A stretch of 64,000 bases of DNA, taken from the IMG/VR virus record IMGVR_UViG_3300031992_000029, positions 64,001-128,000 of that record. The stretch is one strand, 5' to 3'. The notes under the pieces are model-generated. The model was given only the letters and a program-made list of their open reading frames with translations. It ran no database searches and was not told where the DNA came from. This stretch comes from a virus (lineage: Duplodnaviria > Caudoviricetes). Below, piece after piece: positions 15,152 through 63,131 of this stretch (positions are counted from its first letter, which is position 1; every line of letters starts with the position of its first letter). The position numbers and the translations under genes are program-made.

Positions 15152-15165
15152 TCTCCATTGTTTTT

Positions 15166-15402: not shown

Positions 15403-15413
15403 TATAAAACCCT

Positions 15414-15787: not shown

Positions 15788-15803
15788 ATTTTCGTGAATA
15801 AAA

Positions 15804-44011: not shown

Positions 44012-44407
44012 TCATGATATCACATTGGAAATCCTGCGGATAATACCCTTGTCTGGAATGAATTCATCGTATCCATTCTCAAACTTGAGATATTTTACTC
44101 CGACAGGAGAATACTCTTTTGTCCATCCTGTGTCTGCATAGAACTCAATGAAGTCCTGGATATCTTCAATATCGTCCCATGTTGCAGATCTCATATCTGG
44201 ATATGAATCAAGATCGAGATTTGAACATGTGAAATGCACAATCCTCTTATCCTTGTAGTCGATCTCGGATTCCACATCTTCGAAATCAAATCCATATGTA
44301 TCTCCGGCATTTGTAATAATTTCATATCCGCCTGGCCTGCAGTCGACCTCGTCGTCTTCGATTTTCCTGTCAAAGATTAATCCGAACTTCATGCATAATC
44401 CGATCAT
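44012..44407 (-). CDS. Acidic hypothetical protein
   Basis: ATGA overlap with the AAA gene. Confidence 0.6.
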   Translation of the reverse strand: MIGLCMKFGLIFDRKIEDDEVDCRPGGYEIITNAGDTYGFDFEDVESEIDYKDKRIVHFTCSNLDLDSYPDMRSATWDDIEDIQDFIEFYADTGWTKEYSPVGVKYLKFENGYDEFIPDKGIIRRISNVIS

Positions 44408-45567
44408 ACGATATACCTCCTCACCTCATCATCACTCCATCTCGGAATTTTCTTAACTGAGATATCAATAACGCTCAGGTCTTTCATGTCTTTGTCGTCG
44501 TCGTAACAGTCGCCTCTACGACCGCTGTTACCATACGAAGACTTGAGAAGAAGTGCGATGCGATCCTTATCCACAGTAAGCGAGCCATCATCAGAAACGG
44601 AAACCGATGTAGACGGTACGCAAATACGAATATAATCCCTTCCGCCCGCTTCATTCGGTTCAGGTGCGATTAATTCTGTGTTTGTATAATCTGTTTCATC
44701 GTAAATATCTACGTTAAACTCGCCGGAATAATTGCTTCCGTCAGAAAGAGTTACAGATGCCTTCAGTCTGATGTCATCTTCCCTTGTAATGTTCATATCT
44801 TCAAGGCATTCTTCAAGGCTATAACCCTGATTGAGCTCGAAGACGAGAGCTCTGAGGATATCATAGTTGATATCAGAGACGGCAGAGAGCCTGATTACCC
44901 CGTCAATCTGTGAATAAAATTCAGGTTTTAATTTATCGGTAAGATACTCTCTGATTTCCTCTACTGAAGGATTTCCAAGGCTAAAATGATAATGGAATCT
45001 GCCGGGCCTATTCTTGAAGTATGTAGAAATCTTGTAGAGTTCGTTACAGGTGATAACGAACATCTTTTTCCCGCTGTCAATTCCGTCGAAGAGCGGAAGC
45101 AGTTCGTCCTGAATACTCGATCTCTCTCCGTCATCATCGTCTGACCTCCCGTTCGAGAATGTCTTATCGAACTCATCGAAGATGACAACAGCCTCCTGGT
45201 CGATAGATGAAATAAATCCAGCGATACCGGAGATCGCTCTTGACACAACGATTACAGGATATCCTCTCTTCACGCTTTCAACCGCCAACATCTTAGCGAA
45301 GAGGGACTTACCGATACCTTTCTTACCAGAAAGAATAATACCGAAGTTCCTATCTGTCGCCTCGAATGACCTGAGCGCCTTTTCAACCTTCTTGTATCTG
45401 TCACCATAGATCTTCTCTTCTTTAACCTCAAGGTCAGTCCTTGAAGAGAGCGAGAATCCTGACATAGGGTTGAATTCCACCTCGTACGAGCCAGCAGGTA
45501 GCTTGTCGTATGTACGAAGTTCGTCGCCGTAAATCTGGTACCTTCCACCAGAGCACACAATGTTCAT
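44404..45567 (-). CDS. AAA+ ATPase
   Basis: Walker A GKKGIGKS, Walker B VVIFDEFDK, TCN sensor, NRPGRF Arg finger. Confidence 0.9.
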   Translation of the reverse strand: MNIVCSGGRYQIYGDELRTYDKLPAGSYEVEFNPMSGFSLSSRTDLEVKEEKIYGDRYKKVEKALRSFEATDRNFGIILSGKKGIGKSLFAKMLAVESVKRGYPVIVVSRAISGIAGFISSIDQEAVVIFDEFDKTFSNGRSDDDDGERSSIQDELLPLFDGIDSGKKMFVITCNELYKISTYFKNRPGRFHYHFSLGNPSVEEIREYLTDKLKPEFYSQIDGVIRLSAVSDINYDILRALVFELNQGYSLEECLEDMNITREDDIRLKASVTLSDGSNYSGEFNVDIYDETDYTNTELIAPEPNEAGGRDYIRICVPSTSVSVSDDGSLTVDKDRIALLLKSSYGNSGRRGDCYDDDKDMKDLSVIDISVKKIPRWSDDEVRRYIV

Positions 45568-45605: not shown

Positions 45606-45897
45606 AACAAGGTAATCCATAAAGTCGATAGTGTTTAAAGAGACTTTATGCGCCATGCCTCTGTGTCGTAATAAACCATCCTTACTGCATGTAAATAACT
45701 CGTCCTGGTCCGAGGAAATTTTTCTAGAGGTCGACCGGAGGGAGGCTTCGAGGAAAAATTTCTAAGGACTCGGACGGTTATTTACTGCAAGTAAGTGTTG
45801 GTTATTACGATACGAAGGACGCATCACAATTTCATACTCCTGTTTACAACTAGAAGCGGGTGTAAATATGTATAACCCAATTTACATTAGCCTTGTT
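45606..45897 (-). ncRNA. Retron-like msr-msd RNA #3 (class B)
   Basis: IR AACAAGG(C)UAAU/AUUACCUUGUU; G at 45885; AGUUGUAAAC stem-loop; long hairpin at about 45663-45813. Confidence 0.85.
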
Positions 45898-46175: not shown

Positions 46176-46451
46176 AAACATAGCAATCCGTAAGGTCATG
46201 AGGTCCTCCACCGAATAACCTTATGCGCCATGCAGGTAGTGGAGCTCCTCCTGATCTGCTGCATCGCCCTGACGGGTTCGTCGTGATGAGAGTTCGGGTG
46301 ATAGCCCGAATCTCTGAACGACGATCCGTCGTTGGCGTGCAGCAAATTCGGAGGCGGTCCGCTACGAAATTTGCATAAACAATTTCATACTCCTGTTCAC
46401 AACTAAGAGCAGGTTTAGATATGTATAAACCTAATATTCATTGCCATGTTT
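46176..46451 (-). ncRNA. Retron-like msr-msd RNA #4 (class B)
   Basis: IR AAACAUGGCAAU/AUUGCUAUGUUU (one G-U); G at 46439; AGUUGUGAAC stem-loop; long hairpin at about 46236-46365. Confidence 0.85.
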
Positions 46452-47172: not shown

Positions 47173-47201
47173 ATTATAACATACTTTACTTGTTTTGTCA
47201 A
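47173..47201 (-). promoter_or_regulatory. SigA/sigma70 consensus promoter heading the ncRNA #4-#1 cassette
   Basis: TTGACA-17 nt-TATAAT. Confidence 0.85.
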
Positions 47202-47639: not shown

Positions 47640-47954
47640 TTACCACAAGCAATTAATATCGTCCGGTTTTATTTCGTCGTCTTCATGACTATACGGAACG
47701 AGCCATTCTCCGTGAAATACCCAGTCTCTATTGCTAGAGTCGTATGATTCACGGTTTTCAAACTTAACAAAATATACACGTACACCATCAGCGTCGCTGC
47801 CAGTATCTTTGATAATCCCGCTCTTTTGAATGAGCACGTTCATACTCGGATTCCAGTATATCCCTTCTGTGTACTCTTGTCCGTTCGGGCCAACAACTAA
47901 TACCTCGTCGCCGACCTTATAATTAATATTATAATCCACAATTGCTCCTCTCAT
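47640..47954 (-). CDS. Array protein, SH3/KOW-like + acidic tail
   Basis: YKVGDEV...DDEIKPDDINCLW. Confidence 0.7.
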   Translation of the reverse strand: MRGAIVDYNINYKVGDEVLVVGPNGQEYTEGIYWNPSMNVLIQKSGIIKDTGSDADGVRVYFVKFENRESYDSSNRDWVFHGEWLVPYSHEDDEIKPDDINCLW

Positions 47955-47973
47955 TGATTATAAAACTACACTT

Positions 47974-48255
47974 TTATAGTAGTTCAGACATATCGACTAC
48001 ATCTATGTCTTCATCCACGTCCAAATAGCCGCTTATAGACATCATATGTGGTTCAGGAACCCACGCAATCCTATCAGTAAATTTACCATCAAGTACTCTA
48101 ATAAGATAGTCAGTAATAAAATAGTTGTATTCCTGTACATCTTCGATTATCGCATCTGTAAAATCATCTAAAACCCCTGAACCTAAACGGTTTTCAATAT
48201 GAACACCTGGTTTTAGCGCTACTATTTCCCCGACTTTATATTTTGCTTTCATCAA
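47974..48255 (-). CDS. Array protein, SH3/KOW-like + acidic tail
   Basis: YKVGEIV...DEDIDVVDMSELL. Confidence 0.7.
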   Translation of the reverse strand: MMKAKYKVGEIVALKPGVHIENRLGSGVLDDFTDAIIEDVQEYNYFITDYLIRVLDGKFTDRIAWVPEPHMMSISGYLDVDEDIDVVDMSELL

Positions 48256-48270
48256 TCGGCTCCTTTCGTG

Positions 48271-48504
48271 TCATAAAAGAAGATCAATATCTTCAGGCGT
48301 TATATTTTCGTCTTCAAAGATATCTCTAAGTAGGTTTTCGTTACATAGCCAATTACCAGAATCGTCATCGAAAGAAATCCAATAGATTGGATATATACTG
48401 TGCAGCGTGTCAATACTAACGATCGTACATCTCCTGCCATGAAACCTTGCATTGTCTCCGACGAAGACCGCACAATCGCCAGGTTTATACTTATTATTTG
48501 GCAT
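48271..48504 (-). CDS. Array protein, SH3/KOW-like + acidic tail
   Basis: Start moved to MPNNKYKPGD; ends DENITPEDIDLLL. Confidence 0.65.
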   Translation of the reverse strand: MPNNKYKPGDCAVFVGDNARFHGRRCTIVSIDTLHSIYPIYWISFDDDSGNWLCNENLLRDIFEDENITPEDIDLLL

Positions 48505-48514
48505 GTAAAGTCTA

Positions 48515-48826
48515 TTATCCAAGTAAAACCTCAATTCCCTCAGCGCATATATCGTCTTCTTCGTAAAACTTATCTGCATATCCTGCGATATAATTCTCAT
48601 CATAACAGACATAGTATAAACCGTTATCTTTATCAAAGCCACTTAAAAACAGATCGATGAGATAATCAGGCGCGAATGCGTTAAACTCAATCACGTCTGT
48701 TATTATTCCGGTAGTGTTATCGTCAGCACGCCTTCCGTCTTCCCCGATGGTAGTACCTGGTTTTATTTTGATGATATCACCAACCTTATATTTTGCTTTT
48801 CTCATATTAACTAACACCCTCCACAT
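48515..48826 (-). CDS. Array protein, SH3/KOW-like + acidic tail
   Basis: YKVGDII...EDDICAEGIEVLLG. Confidence 0.7.
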   Translation of the reverse strand: MWRVLVNMRKAKYKVGDIIKIKPGTTIGEDGRRADDNTTGIITDVIEFNAFAPDYLIDLFLSGFDKDNGLYYVCYDENYIAGYADKFYEEDDICAEGIEVLLG

Positions 48827-49147
48827 TCAAAGAAGAAAACAAATTTCCTCTGCATGTATATCCTCTTCTTTATAAAATTTATCTGCATATCCAACGATAT
48901 AGCGTTCGTCAAAGTATTGATAATACGAATCACAATCGACTTCGAGAGGACCATTTAGAGATAGATCAATGCCATAGTCAGGGTCAAGTGTAGAACAATT
49001 GTATTCAAATACATCTGTTATTACACCAAAAGTATTATCGTCAGACTTCTTTTTGTACTTGCTAATGGAAACACCTTGTCTTATTTGAACAACATCACCG
49101 ACTTTATATTTTGCTTTTCCCATATTATCTGTGCCCCTCGCATTCAA
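48827..49147 (-). CDS. Array protein, SH3/KOW-like + acidic tail
   Basis: YKVGDVV...EEDIHAEEICFLL. Confidence 0.7.
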   Translation of the reverse strand: MNARGTDNMGKAKYKVGDVVQIRQGVSISKYKKKSDDNTFGVITDVFEYNCSTLDPDYGIDLSLNGPLEVDCDSYYQYFDERYIVGYADKFYKEEDIHAEEICFLL

Positions 49148-49514
49148 AAAGAAAATTTATTTCCTCAGTGCAGATATCATCATCGTTAAAAAACCTACCT
49201 CTACGCTCGGCAATATCATCCTGGTTGAAACGACGGTAATATAAAGATCTGTTATCTTCATCGCTAAGAAATAAATCAACATAATATTCAGTGTAATTAA
49301 ATTTACTGTATTCCTTTACTTCAACTACTACTCCTCTTGTATTACATCCGGCCTTCTTCCCGAGACGACCAATAGTCCTACCTCGTTTTATTCTAACGAT
49401 ATCACCCACCTCGTATTTTATCATTTTACGCTTAGCCTTCCTTTCATACCGAGCGATATCACCGAATACACGTTTTGTTATTGTTTCATAGTCCATTTCC
49501 CACCTCATCAGCAT
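49125..49514 (-). CDS. Array protein, SH3/KOW-like + acidic tail
   Basis: YEVGDIV...DDDICTEEINFLF. Confidence 0.65.
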   Translation of the reverse strand: MLMRWEMDYETITKRVFGDIARYERKAKRKMIKYEVGDIVRIKRGRTIGRLGKKAGCNTRGVVVEVKEYSKFNYTEYYVDLFLSDEDNRSLYYRRFNQDDIAERRGRFFNDDDICTEEINFLFECEGHR

Positions 49515-49765
49515 AAGATATAAGACATATCTTCTGTCTGGAAATCATCTTCCTCGAAAAACGGTTCTATATCTGTGTCAACTCTAACATACCAGCCTTC
49601 TACCTTTCCATCAAAGTTAAACACTACATAGTCGTGATCATATAAGACACCAACAACAGTACGCCCATCTTTCATAGCTCTTTTTATATTGCTTGAAAAA
49701 TCGGACAGGAACTCCATCCCGTCCTGCGTAAGAACAACCTTATCGTCATTTTTAAACACTGACAC
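49508..49765 (-). CDS. Array protein + acidic tail
   Basis: FKNDDKV...EDDFQTEDMSYILC. Confidence 0.65.
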   Translation of the reverse strand: MSVFKNDDKVVLTQDGMEFLSDFSSNIKRAMKDGRTVVGVLYDHDYVVFNFDGKVEGWYVRVDTDIEPFFEEDDFQTEDMSYILC

Positions 49766-49771
49766 CCCTTT

Positions 49772-50062
49772 CTATCCCGTTATATCAAACAGAAATTCTA
49801 TATTTTCAACATCAAAATCATCATGCTCATCCTCGAATCTAATCGGTGCCAACCACTCATCAACAAACCATAACGATTGCAAGTAGATATCGTCGTCTTC
49901 AAGTATGTATACAGTTCCCATGTAATATGGAACTGAGGTGCTAGCTATGACAGCTTCGTGTCCAATATATTCATCCATGAGATCAGCAAGCCACGGCACT
50001 CCTCTTATAACTTCGTCACTCTTCTTAGGTCCAATAATCCGAACCTTTGTTCCAATCATCAT
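49772..50062 (-). CDS. Array protein, SH3/KOW-like + acidic tail
   Basis: IGTKVRIIGP...W...MDEYIG...WL...DDFDVENIEFLF. Confidence 0.7.
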   Translation of the reverse strand: MMIGTKVRIIGPKKSDEVIRGVPWLADLMDEYIGHEAVIASTSVPYYMGTVYILEDDDIYLQSLWFVDEWLAPIRFEDEHDDFDVENIEFLFDITG

Positions 50063-50334
50063 AAAGCACCTCCAAGAAGCTCACTAATAATGGTGTCTGT
50101 TGAAACGCCTTCGTCATATTCTTCGTCTGTGCTACTGTTCATCACCGATAATTCTTCTTCGTAAAAATATAACGGCACTAGAAATTTCCTGTTATGAAAC
50201 TTCACAGCATAAAGAGTATCAGCGTGTTCAAACTTATGTATCCCGCTTATAACCCCAGCCTCACCGATAAGTTGCCTTCTCGTGTTAGCACCGAAGACTC
50301 TTTCGTTAATAATCACTTCAGTTCCTACTTCCAT
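50059..50334 (-). CDS. Array protein, SH3/KOW-like + divergent acidic tail
   Basis: Start MEVGTEV after RBS GGAGG. Confidence 0.6.
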   Translation of the reverse strand: MEVGTEVIINERVFGANTRRQLIGEAGVISGIHKFEHADTLYAVKFHNRKFLVPLYFYEEELSVMNSSTDEEYDEGVSTDTIISELLGGAL

Positions 50335-50372
50335 TTTTATTACCTCCAACAATAAATATAACCGTAGAAAAG

Positions 50373-50401
50373 CACCCCGTTCCCACCGGGGTGCCTCTAC
50401 G
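50373..50401 (-). terminator. Intrinsic terminator
   Basis: GCACCCCG-...-CGGGGTGC followed by TTTTCT on the minus strand. Confidence 0.6.
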
Positions 50402-50540
50402 ACGCCACTATTACACGAAAGGAGCAAAAAACAGAAAGGATATACAGCACTCTATACTAAGGCAAACACAGCGTGGCGAGACTGTGTTAAAAGCAAAAAG
50501 TAGCCAAATCTTGCGGATTTGTCAAAGCAAAATCCAGCGA

Positions 50541-50584
50541 TTTTAGAACCTTTTAGAACCGTTTAGAACCATCAAGGTTCTAAA
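50541..50584. repeat. Three tandem TTTAGAACC repeats plus one inverted copy
   Basis: 50541-50570 with 10-bp period; GGTTCTAAA at 50576-50584. Confidence 0.8.
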
Positions 50585-50727
50585 TCAATTTTAAAATGGC
50601 TTATTTACGCCATTTTTCGGGCCTCTCCTTAAAGAACTATCAGAGGGAAACCCGGTTCCATTTCAATATAACAAGTATTGTTTCAATACTAGCCAAAAAT
50701 TCAAAGTAGTCATAAAATTAATTTAAT

Positions 50728-50960
50728 TTCCAAAAGAAACAATAGAATCAGCATATGTTTTAAAGCTCAGAGATCCTGATTGTGATCAGCTGGAGGCAGC
50801 TCCTGGGATATCTGAATTGGTAGTGGCAGCTGGCTCTTGAGGGCCCAGATCCTGCTGAATTCATTCGGCGGGCGGGTCTTGCCGTTCCCACAAAGTGATA
50901 CCGTCGTTTACAACTGGCGGCACAGATTAAAATCTGTAATACATTGCTATTGTTTTGGAA
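50728..50960 (-). ncRNA. Retron-like msr-msd RNA #5 (class A)
   Basis: IR UUCCAAAACAAUAGCAAU / AUUCUAUUGUUUCUUUUGGAA; G at 50942; msr nearly identical to #6. Confidence 0.8.
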
Positions 50961-50976
50961 GTTGAATAATTATTTA

Positions 50977-51213
50977 TTATATAATACTGAATATATCTTC
51001 GATTTTTATATCCTCTTCTTCCTCTATATGACGAAGAAATTCCTCATGCAGATAAAGAGATCCAGTATCGGTTTGTATAAGATATCTATTTCCATATTTG
51101 TTACTGTACTCCATCACGCTACCGACAATACCATTAAAATATCTATAATATACACTATCTTTTGGTACCGTGATGACAACGCATTCTCCTATATTAAATT
51201 CATGGCACATCAT
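50977..51213 (-). CDS. Array protein, SH3/KOW-like + acidic tail
   Basis: FNIGECV...EEDIKIEDIFSII. Confidence 0.7.
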   Translation of the reverse strand: MMCHEFNIGECVVITVPKDSVYYRYFNGIVGSVMEYSNKYGNRYLIQTDTGSLYLHEEFLRHIEEEEDIKIEDIFSII

Positions 51214-51437
51214 ATAATACCTGACAGGTCAACAGCTTCTATATCTTCATCATCTTCTGCGAGTTCAAGATGCTTACCAGACATTACTATTGCACAATTT
51301 TCATTTATACCTACATGAAACTGACCGAGAGCGTTAATGTAAACTACCGTTCCGACGTGACCGTTGAAACCAGCTCGCATATCCTTGGAACCCTCTGGCA
51401 TTTTTATTACAACTCTGTCACCAATTTGGAATTTCAT
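51210..51437 (-). CDS. Array protein, SH3/KOW-like + acidic tail
   Basis: FQIGDRV...DEDIEAVDLSGII. Confidence 0.7.
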   Translation of the reverse strand: MKFQIGDRVVIKMPEGSKDMRAGFNGHVGTVVYINALGQFHVGINENCAIVMSGKHLELAEDDEDIEAVDLSGII

Positions 51438-51449
51438 TTATCCCTCCAG

Positions 51450-51683
51450 TTACATAATGTTAAATAAATCTTCAGCATCTATTTCCTCGTCAGGTTCAAG
51501 ACGCTTAATACGCCTAACATATTTCACAGGCCACCAACCATTATCAGCTCCGTCAACTTTTACAAATTCACTGACCGCATCTTCTCCTGTATCTTTCACT
51601 GTGCAAATACAACCGTCGTACTTGTGGAATACACTGCGTTCTGGACATTCTATGATGACGGTATCACCTATATGAAATTTCAT
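51450..51683 (-). CDS. Array protein, SH3/KOW-like + acidic tail
   Basis: FHIGDTV...DEEIDAEDLFNIM. Confidence 0.7.
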   Translation of the reverse strand: MKFHIGDTVIIECPERSVFHKYDGCICTVKDTGEDAVSEFVKVDGADNGWWPVKYVRRIKRLEPDEEIDAEDLFNIM

Positions 51684-51693
51684 TTTTTAAACC

Positions 51694-51933
51694 TCATGAC
51701 ATAATGTCGCTTAAGTCAACAAGTTCTATCAGTTCATCTTGTTCTGGTTTGTAGTGTCTTACGTATCCAGGTGGCAAAAATTTCCATTTAAACTCATCTT
51801 CCGATGAGATTTTTACCCACCCCATATTATCGATAGCTATAACTTCTTTGATAAGCCCGTTATATGATTCAACTATGCTTCCAGGTGGACATGTTATAAT
51901 TACTGTATCTCCAACCTTAAAATCCCTGTCCAT
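51694..51933 (-). CDS. Array protein, SH3/KOW-like + acidic tail
   Basis: FKVGDTV...DELIELVDLSDIMS. Confidence 0.7.
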   Translation of the reverse strand: MDRDFKVGDTVIITCPPGSIVESYNGLIKEVIAIDNMGWVKISSEDEFKWKFLPPGYVRHYKPEQDELIELVDLSDIMS

Positions 51934-51943
51934 AAAACCAACC

Positions 51944-52177
51944 TCACATTATACTTGACAAATCCTGTAACTCTATCTCTTCATCTTTCTCCTCTTTTAC
52001 GAGAAAGCTCGGAGGCCACCAATGTATTACTCTGCATTCGTTAAGTTTTACCCATCCCATATCGTCGATCTCAAGAACCTCGTGAGCACTACCTTCATAT
52101 TCTTCTTTGAAGTCGTTATGAGATTCAAAGTTCAACGGGAATGTTATTATTACAATATCTCCTTTTTTAAATTCCAT
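51944..52177 (-). CDS. Array protein, SH3/KOW-like + acidic tail
   Basis: FKKGDIV...DEEIELQDLSSIM. Confidence 0.7.
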   Translation of the reverse strand: MEFKKGDIVIITFPLNFESHNDFKEEYEGSAHEVLEIDDMGWVKLNECRVIHWWPPSFLVKEEKDEEIELQDLSSIM

Positions 52178-52207
52178 GATATCACCGCATGCTGAATTCG
52201 ATTTCCA

Positions 52208-52453
52208 TTAGATTCCTCCGATCAGCATATTCATATCAGCCTGTTCTATGTTTTCGTCTACATTATCGCCACCGAAGTGTTCTAACCACTCGATGGGCCA
52301 AAGGCCATCATCTGTATTTGATAACGCTACGAAAGTCTCGTTAAACTTTTCAGATATTGTTGTAACTACACCATTGAATTTTTTGTAATACAGTGTGTCT
52401 TTTCTATCATCTGGTATTTTCAGTACAACCACATCGTCTTTGTTAAATACCAT
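52208..52453 (-). CDS. Array protein, SH3/KOW-like + acidic tail
   Basis: FNKDDVV...DENIEQADMNMLI. Confidence 0.7.
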   Translation of the reverse strand: MVFNKDDVVVLKIPDDRKDTLYYKKFNGVVTTISEKFNETFVALSNTDDGLWPIEWLEHFGGDNVDENIEQADMNMLIGGI

Positions 52454-52468
52454 ATACGCCTCCTAATA

Positions 52469-52747
52469 TCAGAACAGGAATGATATATCTTGTGGATGAA
52501 TATTCTCTTCGACATCGTCTCCTGTTCGTACTGGTTCGAGCCAATCCTGGTTGAATAACCAGCCTTTATACCTGACATAACCGGTGTCGTCATTGACAAA
52601 ATCAATTTTAAATGTGCATCCGTCCAAACTATCCATTGAAGAAACCCAGCGAGGCATATCGTATATATGATCACCGCTTGGTTTCCTAATGGTAACTTTG
52701 TCTCCTACATTAAACTTAAAACGCATTACAACCTCTTTCTTAAGCAT
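52469..52747 (-). CDS. Array protein, SH3/KOW-like + acidic tail
   Basis: FNVGDKV...WVSSMD...EENIHPQDISFLF. Confidence 0.7.
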   Translation of the reverse strand: MLKKEVVMRFKFNVGDKVTIRKPSGDHIYDMPRWVSSMDSLDGCTFKIDFVNDDTGYVRYKGWLFNQDWLEPVRTGDDVEENIHPQDISFLF

Positions 52748-53030
52748 AAAGCATATCCAGTTCTGTTGCTGCTATACTTTCCTCCACCTCATCCTCGTAT
52801 TGCCTGGAGATAAGAGTAAGCCAGTCCTCGGCAAACCAATATCCATGATACCAGATATCATGACCGTCGATATTGGAGTATAATTCTTCGGTGATCTCGA
52901 ATATTTCACCATCGAAATCATCCATGTCTTCGTACCATCCAGGTCCGACATTTTCTATTTCGTCACGGTCGCCATCAGGCATATTAATCCTGACGATATC
53001 GCCAACCTGAAATTGAAATTTCCGTTTCAT
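52740..53030 (-). CDS. Array protein, SH3/KOW-like + acidic tail
   Basis: FQVGDIV...EESIAATELDMLYA. Confidence 0.7.
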   Translation of the reverse strand: MKRKFQFQVGDIVRINMPDGDRDEIENVGPGWYEDMDDFDGEIFEITEELYSNIDGHDIWYHGYWFAEDWLTLISRQYEDEVEESIAATELDMLYA

Positions 53031-53039
53031 AATCCTCCT

Positions 53040-53249
53040 TTACAACATTGCCAGGATATCTTCCGGTGAGATATCATCGTCTGCATCATTCATTTCATCT
53101 GGAATAATAGCAACGATCGGAGACTCGATAATAAATTCTTCAGCTGTGCACATACCAACAAACCAATCATCCCCATCATGATAGTATTTCGGTTCGTTTG
53201 TAGCCTGTCGTATTCTGCAAAGTAATTCATCGACATCTATAAGTCTCAT
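53040..53249 (-). CDS. MR.ID-family protein carrying the array tail
   Basis: MRLIDVDELL...DDDISPEDILAML. Confidence 0.65.
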   Translation of the reverse strand: MRLIDVDELLCRIRQATNEPKYYHDGDDWFVGMCTAEEFIIESPIVAIIPDEMNDADDDISPEDILAML

Positions 53250-53257
53250 AATTCACC

Positions 53258-53491
53258 TCAAAATAAAATGGATAAATCCTGAACGTTGATTTCTTCCTCA
53301 TTTCCATCGCTGTAAAAATCGATCCATTCTAAGTACGTTCTGAATGTCTCACTGGCCCATTTTCCTCTATCTTTGGTTTCTAAATCAACCGTATCCCCGT
53401 CTATTTTGGTTATATATCCAACGAAGCCAGGTCTATAGGATGTTTCATTAACTACTACTACAACGTCTCCTACGTGAAATTTACATTTCAT
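53258..53491 (-). CDS. Array protein, SH3/KOW-like + acidic tail
   Basis: FHVGDVV...EEEINVQDLSILF. Confidence 0.7.
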   Translation of the reverse strand: MKCKFHVGDVVVVVNETSYRPGFVGYITKIDGDTVDLETKDRGKWASETFRTYLEWIDFYSDGNEEEINVQDLSILF

Positions 53492-53499
53492 AATGCCTC

Positions 53500-53739
53500 C
53501 TACTCGAAAAGAGCCTGCAGGTCTTCGCTCTCGAAGTTATCTTCGTCGTAAACCTGTTCTAACCACACCTTACTAAAATAAAGGTCTCCGAACCCGTCAA
53601 TCTTTACATCATAATCGTCGGCATAGATGATCTTACCGCTCTTGCCGAGATACTTTTTCATGCCGCTTAACCACATCAGACTAGATCTCAAATGAGGTTT
53701 GGGCCCTACAAGTTTAACTACATCGCCAACGTCAAACAT
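53500..53739 (-). CDS. Array protein, SH3/KOW-like + acidic tail
   Basis: FDVGDVV...EDNFESEDLQALFE. Confidence 0.7.
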   Translation of the reverse strand: MFDVGDVVKLVGPKPHLRSSLMWLSGMKKYLGKSGKIIYADDYDVKIDGFGDLYFSKVWLEQVYDEDNFESEDLQALFE

Positions 53740-53748
53740 ATTCCCTCC

Positions 53749-53979
53749 TTAATACAGGATTGATAAATCCTGTGCTTCAAAACTGTCATCGGTATGGAAC
53801 GGTTTAAGCCACGATACATGTGCGAGGCACTGTTTATGTCTTGCATTGCAATTTTCTAATCTTACGAAATTTCCGCCAGATGACTTCCTGGTTATCACCC
53901 CAACGTACCCGTTACTTTTGAAACTGAAATCGTTTGGTTTATTAATTATTACAACATCGCCTATGCAAAACTTCCCCAT
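53749..53979 (-). CDS. Array protein, SH3/KOW-like + acidic tail
   Basis: FCIGDVV...DDSFEAQDLSILY. Confidence 0.7.
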   Translation of the reverse strand: MGKFCIGDVVIINKPNDFSFKSNGYVGVITRKSSGGNFVRLENCNARHKQCLAHVSWLKPFHTDDSFEAQDLSILY

Positions 53980-54000
53980 ACCACACCTCGCCTTCTTATT

Positions 54001-54342
54001 TTAAACACTAAATAACTCGGAGATATCTTCTACATCTATCGACTCATCTTCTTCATATTTTTCGAACCATTTAACTGGTAAAAATGCATCAGCCATGAAT
54101 TCCTCAGACCATATTGCGTCGTCTAGTCCGTATCCTCTTTTTCTTACTTCTGAGACAGTCATGATACTTCCGGCATGAATATCATCACTTACAAATTTCA
54201 TGTCATGTAATAGATCTATGACATGTTGTGGTGCTACAAGTACTACCTTATCTCCTGGTGCGACAAGTGCTACCTCTCCTGCGTGAAATTTATGTTTTGT
54301 TTCCATTTTGTTACCATATACATGAGATGTCCGTTTTATCAA
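54001..54342 (-). CDS. Array protein + acidic tail
   Basis: FHAGEV...DESIDVEDISELFSV. Confidence 0.65.
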   Translation of the reverse strand: MIKRTSHVYGNKMETKHKFHAGEVALVAPGDKVVLVAPQHVIDLLHDMKFVSDDIHAGSIMTVSEVRKRGYGLDDAIWSEEFMADAFLPVKWFEKYEEDESIDVEDISELFSV

Positions 54343-54598
54343 ATACCTCTTCTGTCTCTTCTTTTACGAGCTGAAGCCAATTGATATTGAAGAAAGAAAA
54401 CGAATCATCGTTACTAAGCAAGGCGGTGTTATCGCCAAAGACATCAAATACAATAAAAATTTTCCCATCGTACTTATCCATATCTGCAACCCATATTGGA
54501 TGTTCCCAAACATCTAGTGGTTTATGAACTACAACAACATCGCCTTTAGATATCTTACTCATACAAATCTCCGATTTCTGTATCAAATTCGTCATCAT
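54311..54598 (-). CDS. Array protein, SH3/KOW-like + acidic tail
   Basis: KGDVVVVHKP...W..DMDKYDG...EEVFDKTDISCIW. Confidence 0.7.
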   Translation of the reverse strand: MMTNLIQKSEICMSKISKGDVVVVHKPLDVWEHPIWVADMDKYDGKIFIVFDVFGDNTALLSNDDSFSFFNINWLQLVKEETEEVFDKTDISCIW

Positions 54599-54818
54599 GA
54601 TGTGTTGCTGATGTAGCGAGTGACAGCCATGTCCGATGGAACGCGAGGTGCTCGTTTATGTCAAGCACATAGAATCCATGTTTTAGACTGAATATCTTTG
54701 TAACAAATGTAACGGCGTTATCATACGATTCATATTCCTTTCTGGCTGCACTGCTTACTTCGTCAGGGATTTTAATTACCACCTCATCCCCAACCATTAA
54801 TTCATCTTTTCCGTCCAT
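54555..54818 (-). CDS. Array protein, SH3/KOW-like + acidic tail
   Basis: VGDEVVI...DDEFDTEIGDLYE. Confidence 0.7.
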   Translation of the reverse strand: MDGKDELMVGDEVVIKIPDEVSSAARKEYESYDNAVTFVTKIFSLKHGFYVLDINEHLAFHRTWLSLATSATHHDDEFDTEIGDLYE

Positions 54819-54827
54819 GTTGCCTCC

Positions 54828-55058
54828 CTAAAGAGCCAAGAAATCCTCTGGTTTTATATCTTCATCCTCTTCGTATGGTTCAAGCCACTCCTCATCCAGA
54901 AAGTTGGCACATTTGTCAAGTAAATACCAGTTTTTTATGCAGCCAACATATTCGACTCTACCAACGATACCGAAATAACTTTCCTTGCTTCCCATTTTTT
55001 CCTTTGGACCACACACATGGACTATGTCGCCTTTCTTGTATTTATGATGCATTACCAC
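54828..55058 (-). CDS. Array protein, SH3/KOW-like + acidic tail
   Basis: YKKGDIV...DEDIKPEDFLAL. Confidence 0.7.
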   Translation of the reverse strand: MVMHHKYKKGDIVHVCGPKEKMGSKESYFGIVGRVEYVGCIKNWYLLDKCANFLDEEWLEPYEEDEDIKPEDFLAL

Positions 55059-55354
55059 AAACCTCCGATATCGCAGGCCGTGATTTCCTCGTCACCGAAG
55101 GCGTCTGTATATGGGACAAGCCACTGCTCATCGAATGACCACATGATACACTCGATTCTTGACTCAGCTATTTTTCCGTCTACCAAGAGCCGGCATGTGA
55201 AGCATGAATCGTTGAATTCAGATTCACTATTTACAATACCATGCTTTCCGATATATTCATCCATTTGTGGATTCCAGTACAAAGGCGACGTTACACCGTT
55301 CGGACCGACAATAATAACCTCGTCGCCCTTTCTAAATCTTCTCTCTCTGTCCAT
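55052..55354 (-). CDS. Array protein, SH3/KOW-like + acidic tail
   Basis: FRKGDEV...YWNPQMDEYIG...DEEITACDIGGLW. Confidence 0.7.
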   Translation of the reverse strand: MDRERRFRKGDEVIIVGPNGVTSPLYWNPQMDEYIGKHGIVNSESEFNDSCFTCRLLVDGKIAESRIECIMWSFDEQWLVPYTDAFGDEEITACDIGGLW

Positions 55355-55355
55355 G

Positions 55356-55652
55356 TTAGCCCCCTATGATCGAAGATAAATCTTCGATTTCAAACTCATC
55401 ATCTACGCATTCACTGACATGTCTGACCCATCTTTTGTCGTAGTAGAAATCGACATACGCGGGTATATATTTATTGGGTTTAATCTTGACCGTTAATTCT
55501 GACACACTCGATATAGTTCCTACCATATCGACATAAGGTTCCATGCTAGGCAACCAACTGACTCCAATTGACTGCTCACCTTCGGTCGGGCCAACTAGTA
55601 TAACATTGTCTCCTATACTAAACATGTTAAATCCTCCACGATTATCTCGCAC
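55356..55652 (-). CDS. Array protein, SH3/KOW-like + acidic tail
   Basis: FSIGDNV...DDEFEIEDLSSII. Confidence 0.7.
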   Translation of the reverse strand: MRDNRGGFNMFSIGDNVILVGPTEGEQSIGVSWLPSMEPYVDMVGTISSVSELTVKIKPNKYIPAYVDFYYDKRWVRHVSECVDDEFEIEDLSSIIGG

Positions 55653-55834
55653 TCTTCAATAGGTTTAAGCCATGTGTCTAGGAATATGAATTTAGATTCC
55701 TCTAAGCGTACTCCTATTCCTGATACGGAAGATACGATCATTGTCTTTCCGACGAACCTGTTCATGGATTTTACCCATCCATTTGTTTCTGATTGTGGCC
55801 CGATGACTTTTACCATATCTCCTACATTAAGCAT
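55613..55834 (-). CDS. Array protein, SH3/KOW-like + acidic tail
   Basis: LNVGDMV...ECEIIVEDLTCLV. Confidence 0.7.
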   Translation of the reverse strand: MLNVGDMVKVIGPQSETNGWVKSMNRFVGKTMIVSSVSGIGVRLEESKFIFLDTWLKPIEECEIIVEDLTCLV

Positions 55835-56067
55835 CTCAGATCCTCTGCCTCAAAATCGTCTTCAGCTATAGGGGATAGCCAACTTTCACCATATGACCAA
55901 ACCTGACCAACCATTTCATATGCCTTTCCTTTACGATAAACCCTCGATATACACTGTATAGTTCTATCGTACCTATCCATATTCGAAACCCACGTCGGTT
56001 CGTCTGGGAAGTTTTTAACACCATTTTCAGGCTTATGAATGATTACCATATCTCCTACATTAAACAT
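55822..56067 (-). CDS. Array protein, SH3/KOW-like + acidic tail
   Basis: FNVGDMV...EDDFEAEDLRCLM; close paralog of 56055-56309. Confidence 0.7.
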   Translation of the reverse strand: MFNVGDMVIIHKPENGVKNFPDEPTWVSNMDRYDRTIQCISRVYRKGKAYEMVGQVWSYGESWLSPIAEDDFEAEDLRCLM

Positions 56068-56309
56068 GATATATCCTCCGTCTCAAATTCTTCCTCGGGT
56101 TCGGGTACGTGGGATAACCAGCTTGAGCCATAAGTCCATATCTGATTAGCCAGCTCTATCCATTTCCCATCGTTGTAGATATACGAGATGCGCTGTTCTG
56201 TTCCGTCGTATTTATCCATACTTGAAACCCACATCGGTTCGTCTGGGAAATTTCTAAAACCATGCTCGGGTTTATGAACGATTACTCTATCTCCTACATT
56301 AAATTCCAT
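56055..56309 (-). CDS. Array protein, SH3/KOW-like + acidic tail
   Basis: FNVGDRV...EEEFETEDISCLM. Confidence 0.7.
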   Translation of the reverse strand: MEFNVGDRVIVHKPEHGFRNFPDEPMWVSSMDKYDGTEQRISYIYNDGKWIELANQIWTYGSSWLSHVPEPEEEFETEDISCLM

Positions 56310-56530
56310 ATATCCTCCGTTGAGAATTCTTCATCCTCTTCGACATGAGATATCCAATCTGTAACAAAAAGTACTCCGTCGCATTCGTCGAGAGACACTA
56401 TGCCGGAGCTGTTAATGTCCTTGATCGTTGTGATCATTCCCAAATATTTATCCCTGGTTGACCACAAGTAATCATATGCTCCACTTCCATCAGGTCCAGT
56501 TATTTCAACGACGTCACCTACATCAAACAT
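56294..56530 (-). CDS. Array protein, SH3/KOW-like + acidic tail
   Basis: Start MFDVGDVV after GGAGG; ends DEEFSTEDIWNLM. Confidence 0.7.
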   Translation of the reverse strand: MFDVGDVVEITGPDGSGAYDYLWSTRDKYLGMITTIKDINSSGIVSLDECDGVLFVTDWISHVEEDEEFSTEDIWNLM

Positions 56531-56766
56531 AATATATCCTCCGTGTCGAAATATTCCTCCTCCTCTTCGTGAAGGAGTTCGATCCATCTTACGCTGAAGT
56601 ACCACGGGATACCTTCAAGATGGACAGTTTTCCCGCTTCCGCTTACGCTTGATATTTTGAATGTTTTGTTATCATACCTATCCATCGGGTTGACCCATCC
56701 TGGTTCATCATGTCTTATTGCCGAAGGCTTGTGCACAATAACAGTGTCTCCAGCTTTGTATTTCAC
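56518..56766 (-). CDS. First array protein, overlapping the RT stop codon
   Basis: YKAGDTV...EEYFDTEDILCLM; 4-nt overlap with RT. Confidence 0.7.
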   Translation of the reverse strand: MKYKAGDTVIVHKPSAIRHDEPGWVNPMDRYDNKTFKISSVSGSGKTVHLEGIPWYFSVRWIELLHEEEEEYFDTEDILCLM

Positions 56767-57944
56767 GACACAGACACACCACCTCTCAGATCGTTTTTGA
56801 TCTCAGATACGATATCCATGTTGAACTTCTTACTGAGATGTTCAACAAGTGCGCTGATAGACTCTCTCTCTATCATCATGTAGTAGCTACGATGACCTTC
56901 GAGAACCTGGACATCGTGGAAATCCCACTGGATTCCATTCCTTTTGTCCATTGCGTAGTTCGACAGCATTGCCGTGAACTGCTTTCTTCTCTTGTGTCCG
57001 ATAGTGATCTCGTTGTTTGCGTTAAGCATAACGCCGAGATTCCAATTAGAACCTGCGGAAGAACCGTAGCGTGTTTTCTTCGACTTGATCGTGAACGGTG
57101 CGTCGAAGCTGGAGAGTGTATCTACGATGAACGCCTCGGCTTCCTTGTAGTTGAAATCGTATCTACACGATACAAGAAAGTCGTCTGCGTACCTTGTGTA
57201 TACACAGTAATTTTCCACTTCGTTCCCATCTTTATCATGATATTTGAAGTTTCTGAACCCGTTGTAGAGTTTGAAGTCAACGGGTATCATAATAATGTTA
57301 GTGATAATGGGGCTGATTGGGGTTCCCTGAGGGAGTCCACCGTCAAGGAATGCCAGCTCAAGAGCCTTTTCAAGCTCCGCTCGCCCAACATCATCGAGAC
57401 AAACCTGACTGAATGGGAAAATCCACTGAAGCATATCCATAACGTACTTCAGTGTTGTGCTGCCAAAGAAGTTAGATAAATCAAACTTGGCAAACCATTT
57501 CGATCCATTCCTCTGGTGTCTTTTGATCGAGTCAATGGTTGACCTTTTCTTGATGTACGCAAATGCAGAAGTGTGATACAGGGCATGACAATCTTCCTCA
57601 AAGATTGCCTTCAGATTCCTGAGTGCCGCCTTAAGCTCCTCATTAGGAGCGTCGATCTTTCTGAGGCCACCTGACTTCTTAGGAATGTAGAACTCTGAAT
57701 ACAGTTCTTTTCTCGGAACCTTCCTGAGCTCCTCTGTCTGCTCATTGAACTGTTTCAGCTTATTTATGATGTTGTCGATATCGACGAGGCCCTGAAATTT
57801 TTCGCCGATATATTCCACTTCGTATGTTCTTGTGTTTGTCTCGTTCGAGACATACAGCGGAACCTTTGAATCATTTCCAAAAAGAAATTCCTCAAGTGTC
57901 ATCTGGTGGTATGCAGGTGACTGCGGTACAGTTACATAAAACAT
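56763..57944 (-). CDS. Retron-type reverse transcriptase
   Basis: IPKKSGGLR.I.AP, AFAY, D...H (region X-like), FDLSNFF, LPQGTPISP, YTRYADD, KT, NLG in place of VTG. Confidence 0.92.
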   Translation of the reverse strand: MFYVTVPQSPAYHQMTLEEFLFGNDSKVPLYVSNETNTRTYEVEYIGEKFQGLVDIDNIINKLKQFNEQTEELRKVPRKELYSEFYIPKKSGGLRKIDAPNEELKAALRNLKAIFEEDCHALYHTSAFAYIKKRSTIDSIKRHQRNGSKWFAKFDLSNFFGSTTLKYVMDMLQWIFPFSQVCLDDVGRAELEKALELAFLDGGLPQGTPISPIITNIIMIPVDFKLYNGFRNFKYHDKDGNEVENYCVYTRYADDFLVSCRYDFNYKEAEAFIVDTLSSFDAPFTIKSKKTRYGSSAGSNWNLGVMLNANNEITIGHKRRKQFTAMLSNYAMDKRNGIQWDFHDVQVLEGHRSYYMMIERESISALVEHLSKKFNMDIVSEIKNDLRGGVSVS

Positions 57945-57956
57945 CTTTTCGTCCTT

Positions 57957-58247
57957 TCGTATTCAACATACAGTTTCTGGGAGGCGCAGATCCTGGCGCC
58001 GGCCGTAACTTAAGCTCGCTGTGCTGGATGTAGTCGTCGATTGGATGTCCATCAAATATAGGAATGGTAGATATATTTGATATTTTCGTGGTTTGGAATT
58101 TATGGATGACGACTTCCCGAGGGCCGGCCATCCGGCGGAATCACTGGAGAGATGCATTGCCGCGTGGAGGTGGGTTCCTCTTTCCACACAAGGTGATACC
58201 GTCGTTTACAACTGACGGCACAGACAAATGTCTGTAATACAATACGA
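57957..58247 (-). ncRNA. Retron-like msr-msd RNA #6 (class A), directly upstream of the RT
   Basis: IR UCGUAUU/AAUACGA next to the RT RBS; G at 58240; ACAGAC/GUCUGU and CCGUC-AGUUGUAAAC-GACGG stem-loops. Confidence 0.85.
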
Positions 58248-58250
58248 TTC

Positions 58251-58279
58251 AAAAAGCCGGGCTAAATTAATAGCCCGGC
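58251..58279 (-). terminator. Intrinsic terminator immediately 5' of ncRNA #6
   Basis: GCCGGGCTA/TAGCCCGGC followed by TTTTT. Confidence 0.75.
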
Positions 58280-59234: not shown

Positions 59235-59630
59235 TTATAATTTCTGTACGGCTAAAACAGACTTTCTCATATTGCCAATCATGTCTGCATGAAAAGACCT
59301 ATTAAACCCGAAATTATCTTCGATGAAGTCTTTTAACTCGTTTTTAAGCTCATAGAGAAGGTCAGAATCGTCTTCAAGTACGAAGATTTCACCTGACGGA
59401 TCACGATAGTAGTAGTCGAATCCGTCGTATTCCTCCCAATCGAGGAGGGTGAATTTAATAGTGCGCCAGTTGGAACACCCTTTCACAATATCGGAAAGGG
59501 TTTCCATAAGAATCTCATCTCTTGCGTCTCCGTCTAAGATGTAATCAGCAATGCTGTAACAGTCGTACATTTTTGCAACTTTGAGAAGTTCATCGACCGT
59601 ATAGATGCTATCAAATTCTTCTTTTGTCAT
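59235..59630 (-). CDS. Acidic hypothetical protein, paralog of 59641-60081
   Basis: MTKEEF..I.TV.EL...DARD.IL.E...W...DG.D.Y. Confidence 0.65.
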   Translation of the reverse strand: MTKEEFDSIYTVDELLKVAKMYDCYSIADYILDGDARDEILMETLSDIVKGCSNWRTIKFTLLDWEEYDGFDYYYRDPSGEIFVLEDDSDLLYELKNELKDFIEDNFGFNRSFHADMIGNMRKSVLAVQKL

Positions 59631-59640
59631 GTGATTTTCC

Positions 59641-60081
59641 TCAGATTACCTGGAACTCAGACACGAATTCTTTGAATTCGTCGTCCGTCCACTCATCCAT
59701 GGCCTCTTCGATCTCGACCTCTTCTACAAATTCTTCATCGAACTCTTCATCGTTCTCGAAGCATTCGTTTTCATCCATGAAGTCGTAGAGATCTTCCTTG
59801 AGGCTCTCGAACTCGTCATCTCCGTCTGTAATAGGACGGAAGTCACCCCAGTCGTCATAGACATACCAGTCGTATCCCCCGTCGTCTTCCCAGCCGTTCA
59901 GTATGCCGAGCATTTCTCTCCATGAGTAATCGCCCACACTGTCGACCATTCTTTCGTTAAGGATGTCATCTCTTGCGTCGGATGAGTAGATTTTTTCTTG
60001 TACATCATCACAACCCACGTCTATTGCCGTGTCTACCAGCTCTTCGACAGTTGTGATGTCATTAAATTCCTCTCTTGTCAT
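59641..60081 (-). CDS. Very acidic hypothetical protein
   Basis: RBS AAAGGAG; D/E-rich; paralog of its neighbour. Confidence 0.7.
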   Translation of the reverse strand: MTREEFNDITTVEELVDTAIDVGCDDVQEKIYSSDARDDILNERMVDSVGDYSWREMLGILNGWEDDGGYDWYVYDDWGDFRPITDGDDEFESLKEDLYDFMDENECFENDEEFDEEFVEEVEIEEAMDEWTDDEFKEFVSEFQVI

Positions 60082-60092
60082 TTGGTCTCCTT

Positions 60093-61145
60093 TCAATAAT
60101 CAAGGCCATATCTCATGAGGAGTTCATCGTTAGCATTCTCTTGTTCTGCGAGAACGCTATCGATGTACTCCTCCCAAGTTTCATAAGTATCGGCGTCGTT
60201 TGTTCCAACGACTGTTGTTTTTCCTTCGCTTATTTTTTTTTTATATCCGAATCTCTGACCCTGATCACCCTTTCCTGCCGGTGTAACACTTCCGGGTGCC
60301 GGTTTTCCGCCGTTTCCGCCGGTCGTCACTACTGCGGGAGTTGTGGTTACTTTACTGGTATTTGCGGGTGCACCGCCTCTCTGCTGATTTCCGCCGGAAT
60401 ATCCGCCCTGATATCCTGTGTACCCGGACGTTCCGCCGTAATCGTAGTAGCCATATCCGCCACTGTATCCGCTGTAAGCATATCCAGAACCGGTAGAGCC
60501 AGTATTCGTATAGACATGCTTTTTTACCTGATCGTCTGCCTTTGCGACGAAACCCTCAAGACCCTCGACTACAACGTCGATATCCTTGTTGTCAAAAGAA
60601 AGATTATCACGGAGGTCATAGATGATCCTCGTCATATCTCCTTTTTTATTGTGGATCGTGAAAATATAGAAGTCGTCCTGCGGAAGCTGCCCAAGGATGC
60701 GCCTGTATAACGTCTCGTCTGTTGTGCTGGGGCTTACACCCATATTGACGTGGGAATGGCACTGGGCGCGGATGGAATTGAATTCCTCATCCGTGTGTGC
60801 ATACAGCCATTTCGTGTATTCCTCCTGATCCGTGGTCACGGTTGCGCCGGTGACTTCCTGGGGATATACTTCCAGATCTTCGATCTTATATGTGTTTTCC
60901 TCACCATCAACACGGTGTGCGAATCCGTGCCATGCTACTTCGGAACTGAAGTGGTCTACAAGGACCTTCGTCTTCAGCCATGCCTTTGTGCTGTACACCA
61001 GCGTGGCCTTCTTATTTACAGTCCCGAAGTCGTGTGTGAACGTAAACTTACCATTGGCAAGTTTACTCGTTGTAAGTGCCTTCTTGAACTCCTCGATAAT
61101 GGAGTCCATCTGTGATCCGATGTCAACTTTGATGACTTTTGCCAT
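60093..61145 (-). CDS. JAB/MPN metalloprotease with G/Y-rich low-complexity tail
   Basis: SEVAW, YPQ, HSH.NM...PS..D JAMM motif. Confidence 0.85.
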   Translation of the reverse strand: MAKVIKVDIGSQMDSIIEEFKKALTTSKLANGKFTFTHDFGTVNKKATLVYSTKAWLKTKVLVDHFSSEVAWHGFAHRVDGEENTYKIEDLEVYPQEVTGATVTTDQEEYTKWLYAHTDEEFNSIRAQCHSHVNMGVSPSTTDETLYRRILGQLPQDDFYIFTIHNKKGDMTRIIYDLRDNLSFDNKDIDVVVEGLEGFVAKADDQVKKHVYTNTGSTGSGYAYSGYSGGYGYYDYGGTSGYTGYQGGYSGGNQQRGGAPANTSKVTTTPAVVTTGGNGGKPAPGSVTPAGKGDQGQRFGYKKKISEGKTTVVGTNDADTYETWEEYIDSVLAEQENANDELLMRYGLDY

Positions 61146-63034: not shown

Positions 63035-63131
63035 ACTTTTACTTCCTTTCATTCAAAAGGAGCGGGTATTCCCCGCTCCACAACTGTATCTATATCGGAG
63101 CGAGCTATAAACTAACTCCGGTATTTACTTC

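Follow-up and report, generated by a model that had tools for sequence, protein, structure and literature searches.

A tandem array of 32 small genes was found at positions 47640-56766 of a 64,000-nt window of phage DNA, and its products shared one short acidic, amphipathic C-terminal peptide behind divergent cores with a predicted SH3-type barrel fold. The window comprised bases 64001-128000 of the IMG/VR record IMGVR_UViG_3300031992_000029 (137,481 bp, rated complete by CheckV), and all positions below refer to it unless stated otherwise. Our reading, with a probability of about 0.45, is that the array forms a bank of binders peculiar to this lineage, which serve in host interaction or counter-defence and have one docking peptide in common. 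Each member would consist of three parts: a barrel resembling SH3_15 and the Mind bomb REP domain, with variable loops; a flexible acidic linker; and an amphipathic end peptide of ~10 residues. Each barrel would have a host or defence target of its own, and the tail common to all would act as a short linear docking motif that gathers the barrels, together with at least two non-homologous proteins, at a single shared partner, which may be a host protein. The members are probably early phage proteins.

The carriers of the tail in the window were as follows, with the evidence in brackets (ORF, open reading frame; HMM, hidden Markov model; AF2, AlphaFold2; RBS, ribosome-binding site; PSSM, position-specific scoring matrix; dN/dS, ratio of non-synonymous to synonymous substitution rates; L052, a related contig described below).

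50977-56766, minus strand: block 1, 23 tandem genes, 22 of them encoding an SH3_15-like barrel with the tail and one (53040-53249) the tail on another core (ORFs, alignment, HMM, RBS and spacing, dN/dS against L052)
47640-50427, minus strand: block 2, nine tandem genes of the same family (ORFs, alignment, HMM, AF2 model of 48827-49123 with fold search)
53040-53249, minus strand: 69-amino-acid gene in block 1, with the tail and no SH3-like core by sequence (core-only HMM 13 bits, partial; paralogue match in the tail only)
21219-21584, minus strand: dispersed member, SH3-like core with tail, within the replication module (family and core-only HMMs)
31313-31594, minus strand: dispersed member with tail (family and core-only HMMs)
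41544-41819, minus strand: dispersed member with tail (family and core-only HMMs)
21589-21903, minus strand: unrelated 104-amino-acid protein, rich in N, T and Y, with a full-strength tail (PSSM 24.7 bits; seven orthologues)

The 32 ORFs listed in the original prediction were all present on the minus strand and formed one family in an alignment (A1), in which the [FY]x[VI]GDxV, W..xMD.[YF].G and WL motifs described for them were recovered. An HMM built from A1 was run against all ORFs of the genome, and the array ORFs scored with E values of 1e-24 to 1e-10, with the exception of 53040-53249 (7e-6). The SH3-like core that had been assigned to all 32 members stood for 31 of them and failed for 53040-53249, which gave only the partial core match listed above. 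At least 35 SH3-type members were detected genome-wide, 31 of them in the array; the fourth member outside it lay beyond the window (genome positions 131911-132240, HMM). The array was not the whole family, and it made up ~6% of the 137-kb genome.

The gene sizes, given earlier as ~70-130 amino acids, came to roughly 69-100 after start correction, as several of the longest ORFs overcalled the start. Most array genes had a GGAGG-type RBS 4-9 nt before the ATG that opens the FxVGD motif. The spacing within the blocks ranged from -16 to +30 nt, and the blocks were 549 nt apart; a calculated gap of 214 nt in the array was an artefact of a mis-picked start for 54001-54342. The first gene of block 2 likely starts at 50334, and this block contained a KYKVGD subfamily with longer loops. 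PADLOC and PHROGs gave no name to any array member, and ten small genes neighbouring the array had no Pfam name. A 118-amino-acid ORF (6807-7163, minus strand) matched the N-terminal FxVGDxV strand of the family over its first 21 residues (E 7.5e-4) and carried no tail; this ORF is possibly a degenerate relative, or one without the tail.

The cores were highly divergent, as had been noted originally, with a mean pairwise identity of 21% and the tail pattern retained. AF2 models were made for one member of each block. The model of member 56518-56766, built with a paralogue alignment, had a predicted local distance difference test score (pLDDT) of 84.8 and a five-strand barrel over residues 1-65 (pLDDT >90 in the barrel and ~55 in the tail). 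In an exhaustive structural search, its best PDB matches were Mind bomb 1 REP structures (4xi6, Z 9.0, root-mean-square deviation 1.9, 63 aligned; 4tse, Z 8.5), followed by uL24, Spt5/NusG KOW, PetP and NdhS at Z 6-7.6; the agreement of Foldseek with this search was weak. The model of 48827-49123, which represents the most divergent subgroup, had a pLDDT of 71 and matched SH3, Tudor, chromo and KOW barrels at Z 5.4-7.0, including 4tse at Z 5.4. Both models matched SH3-type barrels, in keeping with the SH3/KOW-like core proposed at the outset, and the array cores are predicted to share one fold. No KOW match (PF00467) was found by Pfam in the members, and the structural matches to uL24, Spt5 KOW and NusG (Z 6-7.6) were in the background range. 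In the alignment and the AF2 model, core insertions and deletions clustered between strand beta1 and the helix, and among the later strands.

A Pfam scan of the 32 members returned no SH3_15 domain (PF18346), even at E<=0.1, and only weak matches to HAS-barrel, Tudor_5, NifZ and SH3_2. At E<=1e-3, a profile search with A1 retrieved 2590 proteins. Many had several repeats, and repeat proteins were the top hits (E down to 2.6e-34). Among these relatives, PF18346 was matched by 48 of the 92 that were scanned, and one of them (P0039) had eight SH3_15 stretches. The signal per repeat was modest (hhalign E 6e-4, probability 29%). We describe the array core as an SH3_15-like barrel of distant kinship and stop short of placing it in that family, because no single member reaches the Pfam model, yet the family profile retrieves SH3_15 repeat proteins.

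All 32 array ORFs ended in an acidic run followed by the tail pattern. The logo of 33 anchored tails was [ED][ED][DE][ED][DEN]-[IF]-x-x-[EQ]-D-[ILM]-x-x-[LI]-hydrophobic, and the tail usually stopped 0-1 residues from the C-terminus, with 2-6 extra residues in several cases. With a 15-mer PSSM the family scored at least 23 bits; shuffled proteins gave 0.6 hits above 12 bits per genome, and the maximum at shuffled C-termini was 3.5. The logo and the matrix both agreed with the shared tail that had been described for the array. The only C-terminus outside the family that rose above the shuffled null was that of the 104-amino-acid protein, and it was nearly invariant in the seven orthologues of this protein, which were 52-78% identical. 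The ends of Pol III alpha, DnaB, DnaG and Erf were without the tail. Since the tail was also present on two unrelated cores (53040-53249 and 21589-21903), it can be regarded as a portable motif, and the idea of a constant, separable module is borne out. Its distribution is that predicted for a short linear docking motif. The single SH3 genes of distant relatives had acidic-amphipathic variants at their C-termini, for example DEEFxxLFxEL.

Several resemblances of the tail were considered and set aside. Mimicry of the SSB tail (DDD[IL]PF) was rejected, as the logo had no terminal P-F. The same applied to the canonical beta-clamp motif (QL[SD]LF): the [EQ]-D-[IL]-x-x-L-hydrophobic part of the tail is one residue longer, and no member matched Q[LIVM]x[LMI]F. 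The phage genome yielded no DnaN gene. Within the E2-like protein of the ubiquitin-like (Ubl) operon described below, a stretch resembling the tail (position 342, 17 bits) fell in a folded helix, and the orthologues of the protein kept ...KLMxAIF and not the acidic part. A 204-amino-acid zinc-ribbon protein (21900-22514) scored 2.0 bits, no better than the shuffled null. When C-termini of acidic-amphipathic character were searched for loosely, two non-family hits appeared against ~0.8 expected, which was not significant; one of them was p151 (59641-60096). Against PDB sequences, the tail profile had as its best match the Bub1/Mad3 GLEBS peptide bound to Bub3 (E 0.14), a resemblance only.

A 130,672-bp ENA contig (L052) had the same layout of ThiF, reverse transcriptase (RT), array and AAA ATPase, and its 35 members were collinear with those of our phage. 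Between the two, the dN/dS of the array genes ranged from 0.11 to 0.74 (median ~0.27) and was below 1 in all 29 scorable pairs. The values for the RT, ThiF and AAA genes were 0.03, 0.03 and 0.13, and the array value was ~10 times that of RT and ThiF. The array genes are under purifying selection and yet evolve fast. The turnover of members was rapid: in a Logan contig (L068), the RT was 85% identical to ours and the gene after it only 36% identical to our first member, with the same overlap of start and stop. The nearest paralogue lay at most two positions away for 41% of the genes, compared with 12% in shuffles, and none of 2000 shuffles reached 41%. Close in position though only 27-61% identical, the nearest paralogues indicate that the array arose by old tandem duplications. 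An IS605 OrfB/TnpB-like gene was observed just after the array in L052 (positions 14831-15922 of that contig), and none was present there in our window.

The gene before the array was the following.

56763-57944, minus strand: retron-type RT (RVT_1, 3.5e-19; PADLOC RT_II-A, 3.6e-42)

The original prediction had coupled the array to this RT. The positional part of that claim was confirmed, including the reported overlap of the first gene with the RT stop: the TGA of the RT and the GTG with which the first array gene begins overlapped as GTGA. The array also directly followed the RT in L052 and L068, the array-bearing contigs long enough to show neighbours, and these were close kin (RT 85-93% identical). 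In three other loci (L036, L037 and L047), single SH3-plus-tail genes were located 0.3-6 kb after the RT. The functional part was not supported, as the RT and the Ubl-like genes were kept without the array. Among 51 IMG/VR loci with RT orthologues (53-63% identity), 0-3 family members were found within 10 kb, and nearly all of these loci kept the module of ORF63132, E2-like, JAB-like, ThiF and RT genes. Five relatives that were 95-100% complete had 0-1 family members genome-wide. A check on the co-occurrence of array, RT and Ubl operon had been proposed originally, and it follows from the 51 loci and the five near-complete relatives that the RT and Ubl-like operon do not need the array. Since relatives keep this module with few or no members, it is the older, conserved part, and the array a later expansion beside it, which corrects a tempting over-reading of the two as one system. 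Two of the features expected of a retron effector were examined. The array was in the same predicted operon as the retron RT and a candidate non-coding RNA (the overlap, and hairpin copies that flank RT and block 1); co-inheritance with the RT was not found across the 51 loci and the five near-complete genomes. The link to the RT is a matter of probable co-transcription and possible translational coupling, in this clade only.

In the Ubl-like operon, ThiF/E1 was the only one of the ThiF/E1, JAB-like and E2-like proteins confirmed by a family model; the JAB-like and E2-like proteins (60093-61145 and 61145-62611, minus strand) matched nothing in Pfam, PHROG or PADLOC at the thresholds applied. 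Complex predictions of member 56518-56766 with the Ubl-like protein (62801-63052), ThiF and RT, each with an alignment, gave ipSAE values of 0.00 and 0.01, to which we attach no weight either way. The Ubl-like protein (83 amino acids) ended in VQKADNAAA, its orthologues in VVKADNA, and there was no Gly-Gly. Two acidic paralogues (pI ~4.1; 59641-60096, which is p151, and 59235-59630, minus strand) were located between the JAB-like gene and ThiF. By tblastn, L052, which bears the array, was the only relative with the pair in this place; three other loci gave weak matches. The C-terminus of p151, TDDEFKEFVSEFQVI, was similar to the tails (DDEFNSLWGELL) with which single SH3 genes of distant relatives end.

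An element with six copies of two hairpins each was located around the array and RT, and its second hairpin had the conserved loop AGTTGTAAAC.

43323-43356, 43840-43873, 45825-45858 and 46378-46411, minus strand: hairpin copies elsewhere (conserved loop and covarying stems)
50889-50951, minus strand: hairpin copy 5, in the 549-nt gap between the blocks, 26 nt after the last block 1 gene
58187-58249, minus strand: hairpin copy 6, upstream of RT, just after a terminator-like site at 58256-58279

The stems covaried between copies (GCCGTC/GACGGT, GCTCTT/AAGAGT and CTTCT/AGGAG). Copy 5 lay where an RNA had been predicted to close the run of 23 genes. L052 had the same six copies, and no hairpin with this loop was found in more distant RT-bearing relatives; the element had no Rfam match at the gathering score. 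A strong terminator-like hairpin (58256-58279, minus strand) was placed after ThiF and before hairpin copy 6 and the RT, and right after the array (47173-47201, minus strand) stood a promoter of perfect TTGACA-17-TATAAT sequence, which also had an extended TG. No comparable terminator or promoter signal was found inside the array. Because of these flanking signals and the absence of comparable ones within, the layout suggests that RT and array form one long transcript.

The window represents the minus-strand non-structural arm of the genome, and the structural genes are probably the large plus-strand genes in the first 64 kb of the record. This arm carried the array, the replication genes, the RT and the tRNAs. 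Its genes included NrdD, a ClpP homologue, an endolysin with CW_7 repeats, Pol III alpha, DnaG and DnaB; an exonuclease, an Erf-like annealing protein, eight clustered tRNAs (28.8-33.4 kb) and a cysteine-desulfurase-like enzyme; and the AAA ATPase, the array, the retron-type RT and the operon containing ThiF/E1. The AAA ATPase (44404-45567) was of the classical type and lay 2 kb beyond the array. NrdD, an anaerobic ribonucleotide reductase (9199-12192, minus strand), was split by an intein that contains a LAGLIDADG endonuclease domain. The ClpP homologue (13322-13975, minus strand; PF00574, 5.4e-26) was located between NrdD and the endolysin, away from the head genes. Between the exonuclease and the Erf-like gene, a 138-amino-acid protein (25675-26091, minus strand) had the C-terminus ...IDDEGLPF, an SSB-type tail, and is probably the phage SSB; the Pfam SSB model had no match anywhere in the genome. 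The host is probably a gut bacterium of the class of Clostridium, because RT relatives were binned in metagenome-assembled genomes of Clostridia (Oscillospiraceae, Acutalibacteraceae and Eubacteriales). Megablast of the region against GenBank phages gave zero matches.

The reading of the array as a bank of binders draws on four observations: the counter-defence neighbours of its relatives, the fast evolution, the variable loops and the location in the early arm. In all three contexts examined of distant multi-repeat SH3_15-like relatives, known counter-defence genes were nearby: Gad2 at ~4 kb (L063), Acb2/Tad1 adjacent (L066), and Lar restriction-alleviation genes adjacent (L067). A bank of anti-defence proteins was one of the roles suggested originally, and it fits both the fast evolution and this company of the distant relatives. 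Several points weigh against the reading. These anti-defence neighbourhoods belong to distant, tail-less multi-repeat relatives and not to this phage, and none of the array neighbours matched a known anti-defence family in Pfam or PADLOC. By analogy, the targets of the barrels need not be proteins, because barrels of the SH3-like kind (KOW, Tudor, LSm-like) are also known as binders of RNA or DNA. Between orthologues the tail was no more conserved than the core (78% vs. 77% identity), which places the constraint on the tail pattern instead of the exact residues. In five or six genes at the head of the array (55600-56770, minus strand), the tail codons (e.g., ...T-E-D-I...) spelled GGAGGAT, and the next ATG was inside the last tail codons, with overlaps of 13-16 nt. 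Tail and translation start were dual-coded there, and the conservation of these tails may be partly at the nucleotide level.

That last point leads to the proposal that the array consists of neutral or selfish duplicates, dispensable ORFs whose tail is kept only through the overlap with the RBS and start of the next gene. Five or six genes have the required GGAGGAT and ATG, but most array genes are free of overlap with the adjacent one, and the tail is also retained by the dispersed members. With dN/dS below 1 in every scorable pair and one-to-one orthologues retained in L052, this proposal is scarcely credible and is largely refuted by dN/dS and gene spacing. Another proposal is that the barrels act on nucleic acids, as KOW-, Tudor- or LSm-like modules tuning gene expression or RNA stability. 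Such a role has been proposed for the T4 early proteins GoF, MotB.1 and Frd.2, which have an LSm-like fold and of which one mutant stabilises an mRNA (PMC12152347). The structural matches to uL24, NusG/Spt5 KOW, Tudor and PWWP (Z 5.6-7.6) are in line with it. The strongly acidic character of the proteins and tails, the lack of a KOW or LSm Pfam match in the members and the peptide-binding REP domain as best structural match make it quite improbable. Packaging of the members into the capsid, with the tail as signal, and their injection with the DNA as pre-made counter-defence cargo would have a parallel in T4, in which many small divergent internal proteins are loaded through a shared terminal tag, although it is N-terminal there. 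We consider this highly improbable, as the array is in the minus-strand non-structural arm and the probable structural genes occupy the plus strand of the first 64 kb; neither a protease site nor a link to the capsid was seen.

The other proposals concern the partner of the tail. A more specific form of the binder bank, close to the adaptors of the original prediction, would have more than 35 interchangeable barrels tuned to different host or defence proteins, with one C-terminal peptide delivering the targets to a single hub. This hub could be a protease or unfoldase, the Ubl-like conjugation machinery of the phage or a host hub such as the clamp. We regard this form as unlikely; if true, bacterial viruses would here have their first counterpart to the F-box/PRANC receptor families known from eukaryotic viruses, and a general, undescribed organisation of phage early proteins would be indicated. 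No positive evidence was obtained for any of the hubs named originally (RT, E1/E2, AAA and ClpP). One Atlas cluster fuses an SH3-like domain to AAA_5, and the L063 context has AAA neighbours, but two other contexts were without AAA; we take the SH3-AAA link as a lead and nothing further. The tail as a degradation or timing tag by which the phage ClpP homologue or host Clp/Lon would remove all these early proteins at once, or the members as SspB-like protease adaptors, is improbable. The ClpP homologue is in the early arm, away from the structural genes, the AAA ATPase follows the array by 2 kb, and the order of barrel, linker and peptide matches that of SspB. The second model also matched the Lon specificity-enhancing factor 5ycq, at a Z of 5.7 that was not above background. 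Against this, the tail resembles neither the XB motif nor the tags known for ClpX, the analysis turned up no unfoldase that has a ClpP-docking loop, and a free C-terminus is not required, because several tails have 2-6 extra residues. Docking on the complex of RT and multicopy single-stranded DNA or on the E1, E2-like or Ubl protein, with the array genes as effectors or substrate receptors, is quite improbable as well. It would account for the GTGA junction here and the same one in L052 and L068, for the two RT-associated hairpin copies that bracket RT and block 1 and for the single SH3-plus-tail genes after the RT in L036, L037 and L047; in addition, Ubl-interacting motifs (SUMO-interacting motifs and LC3-interacting regions) are usually acidic-hydrophobic peptides. 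However, ~50 relatives keep the module with 0-3 members nearby and 0-1 genome-wide, and four members and the 104-amino-acid tail carrier are far from the RT. The tail-like match inside the E2-like protein is a folded helix with an unconserved acidic part, and with no Pfam match for the E2-like and JAB-like proteins the machinery is only partly verified.

A literature search found no published description of such tagged arrays. The accessory regions of phages are rich in small uncharacterised proteins, and here ~37 of them share one peptide, which offers a single experimental handle. Should the tail partner of the binder bank prove to be a protease or a host hub, the array would amount to a natural panel of ready binders against host or defence proteins of gut Clostridia. 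It would also mean that phages, like poxviruses, expand families with a variable receptor and a constant dock.

In comparison with known systems, the nearest structural kin of the array cores is the Mind bomb REP / SH3_15 domain, which was both the best solved structural match and linked by profile to SH3_15 repeat proteins. In Mind bomb, REP is a peptide-binding module and its repeats are inside an E3 ligase, whereas here the phage proteins are single-domain with an acidic tail. Among phages, the closest precedents are small early paralogues of the SH3/LSm-like type, and accessory paralogue families of phages are already known. The T4 GoF group and rV5-like SH3-like paralogue groups are, like the array, small acidic SH3/LSm-like barrels with several divergent paralogues in early or accessory regions; they have far fewer copies and no reported shared C-terminal motif. 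The nearest functional analogies are the SspB-type adaptors and the poxvirus Ank/PRANC proteins. SspB has a small beta-barrel domain, a flexible, disordered linker and a short C-terminal ClpX-binding peptide, but its XB motif is unrelated to the array tail, and it is one protein compared with 35 or more paralogues here. A phage adaptor-like protein is also known for ClpC, Gp53 of SPO1. The poxvirus ankyrin/PRANC (F-box-like) families are expanded viral families whose proteins pair a variable domain for binding with a constant element at the C-terminus, and many receptors are thereby plugged into the host Skp1/SCF. They belong to eukaryotic viruses, have another fold and a known hub, whereas the host here is bacterial, so that the likeness of the array to them is one of analogy only.

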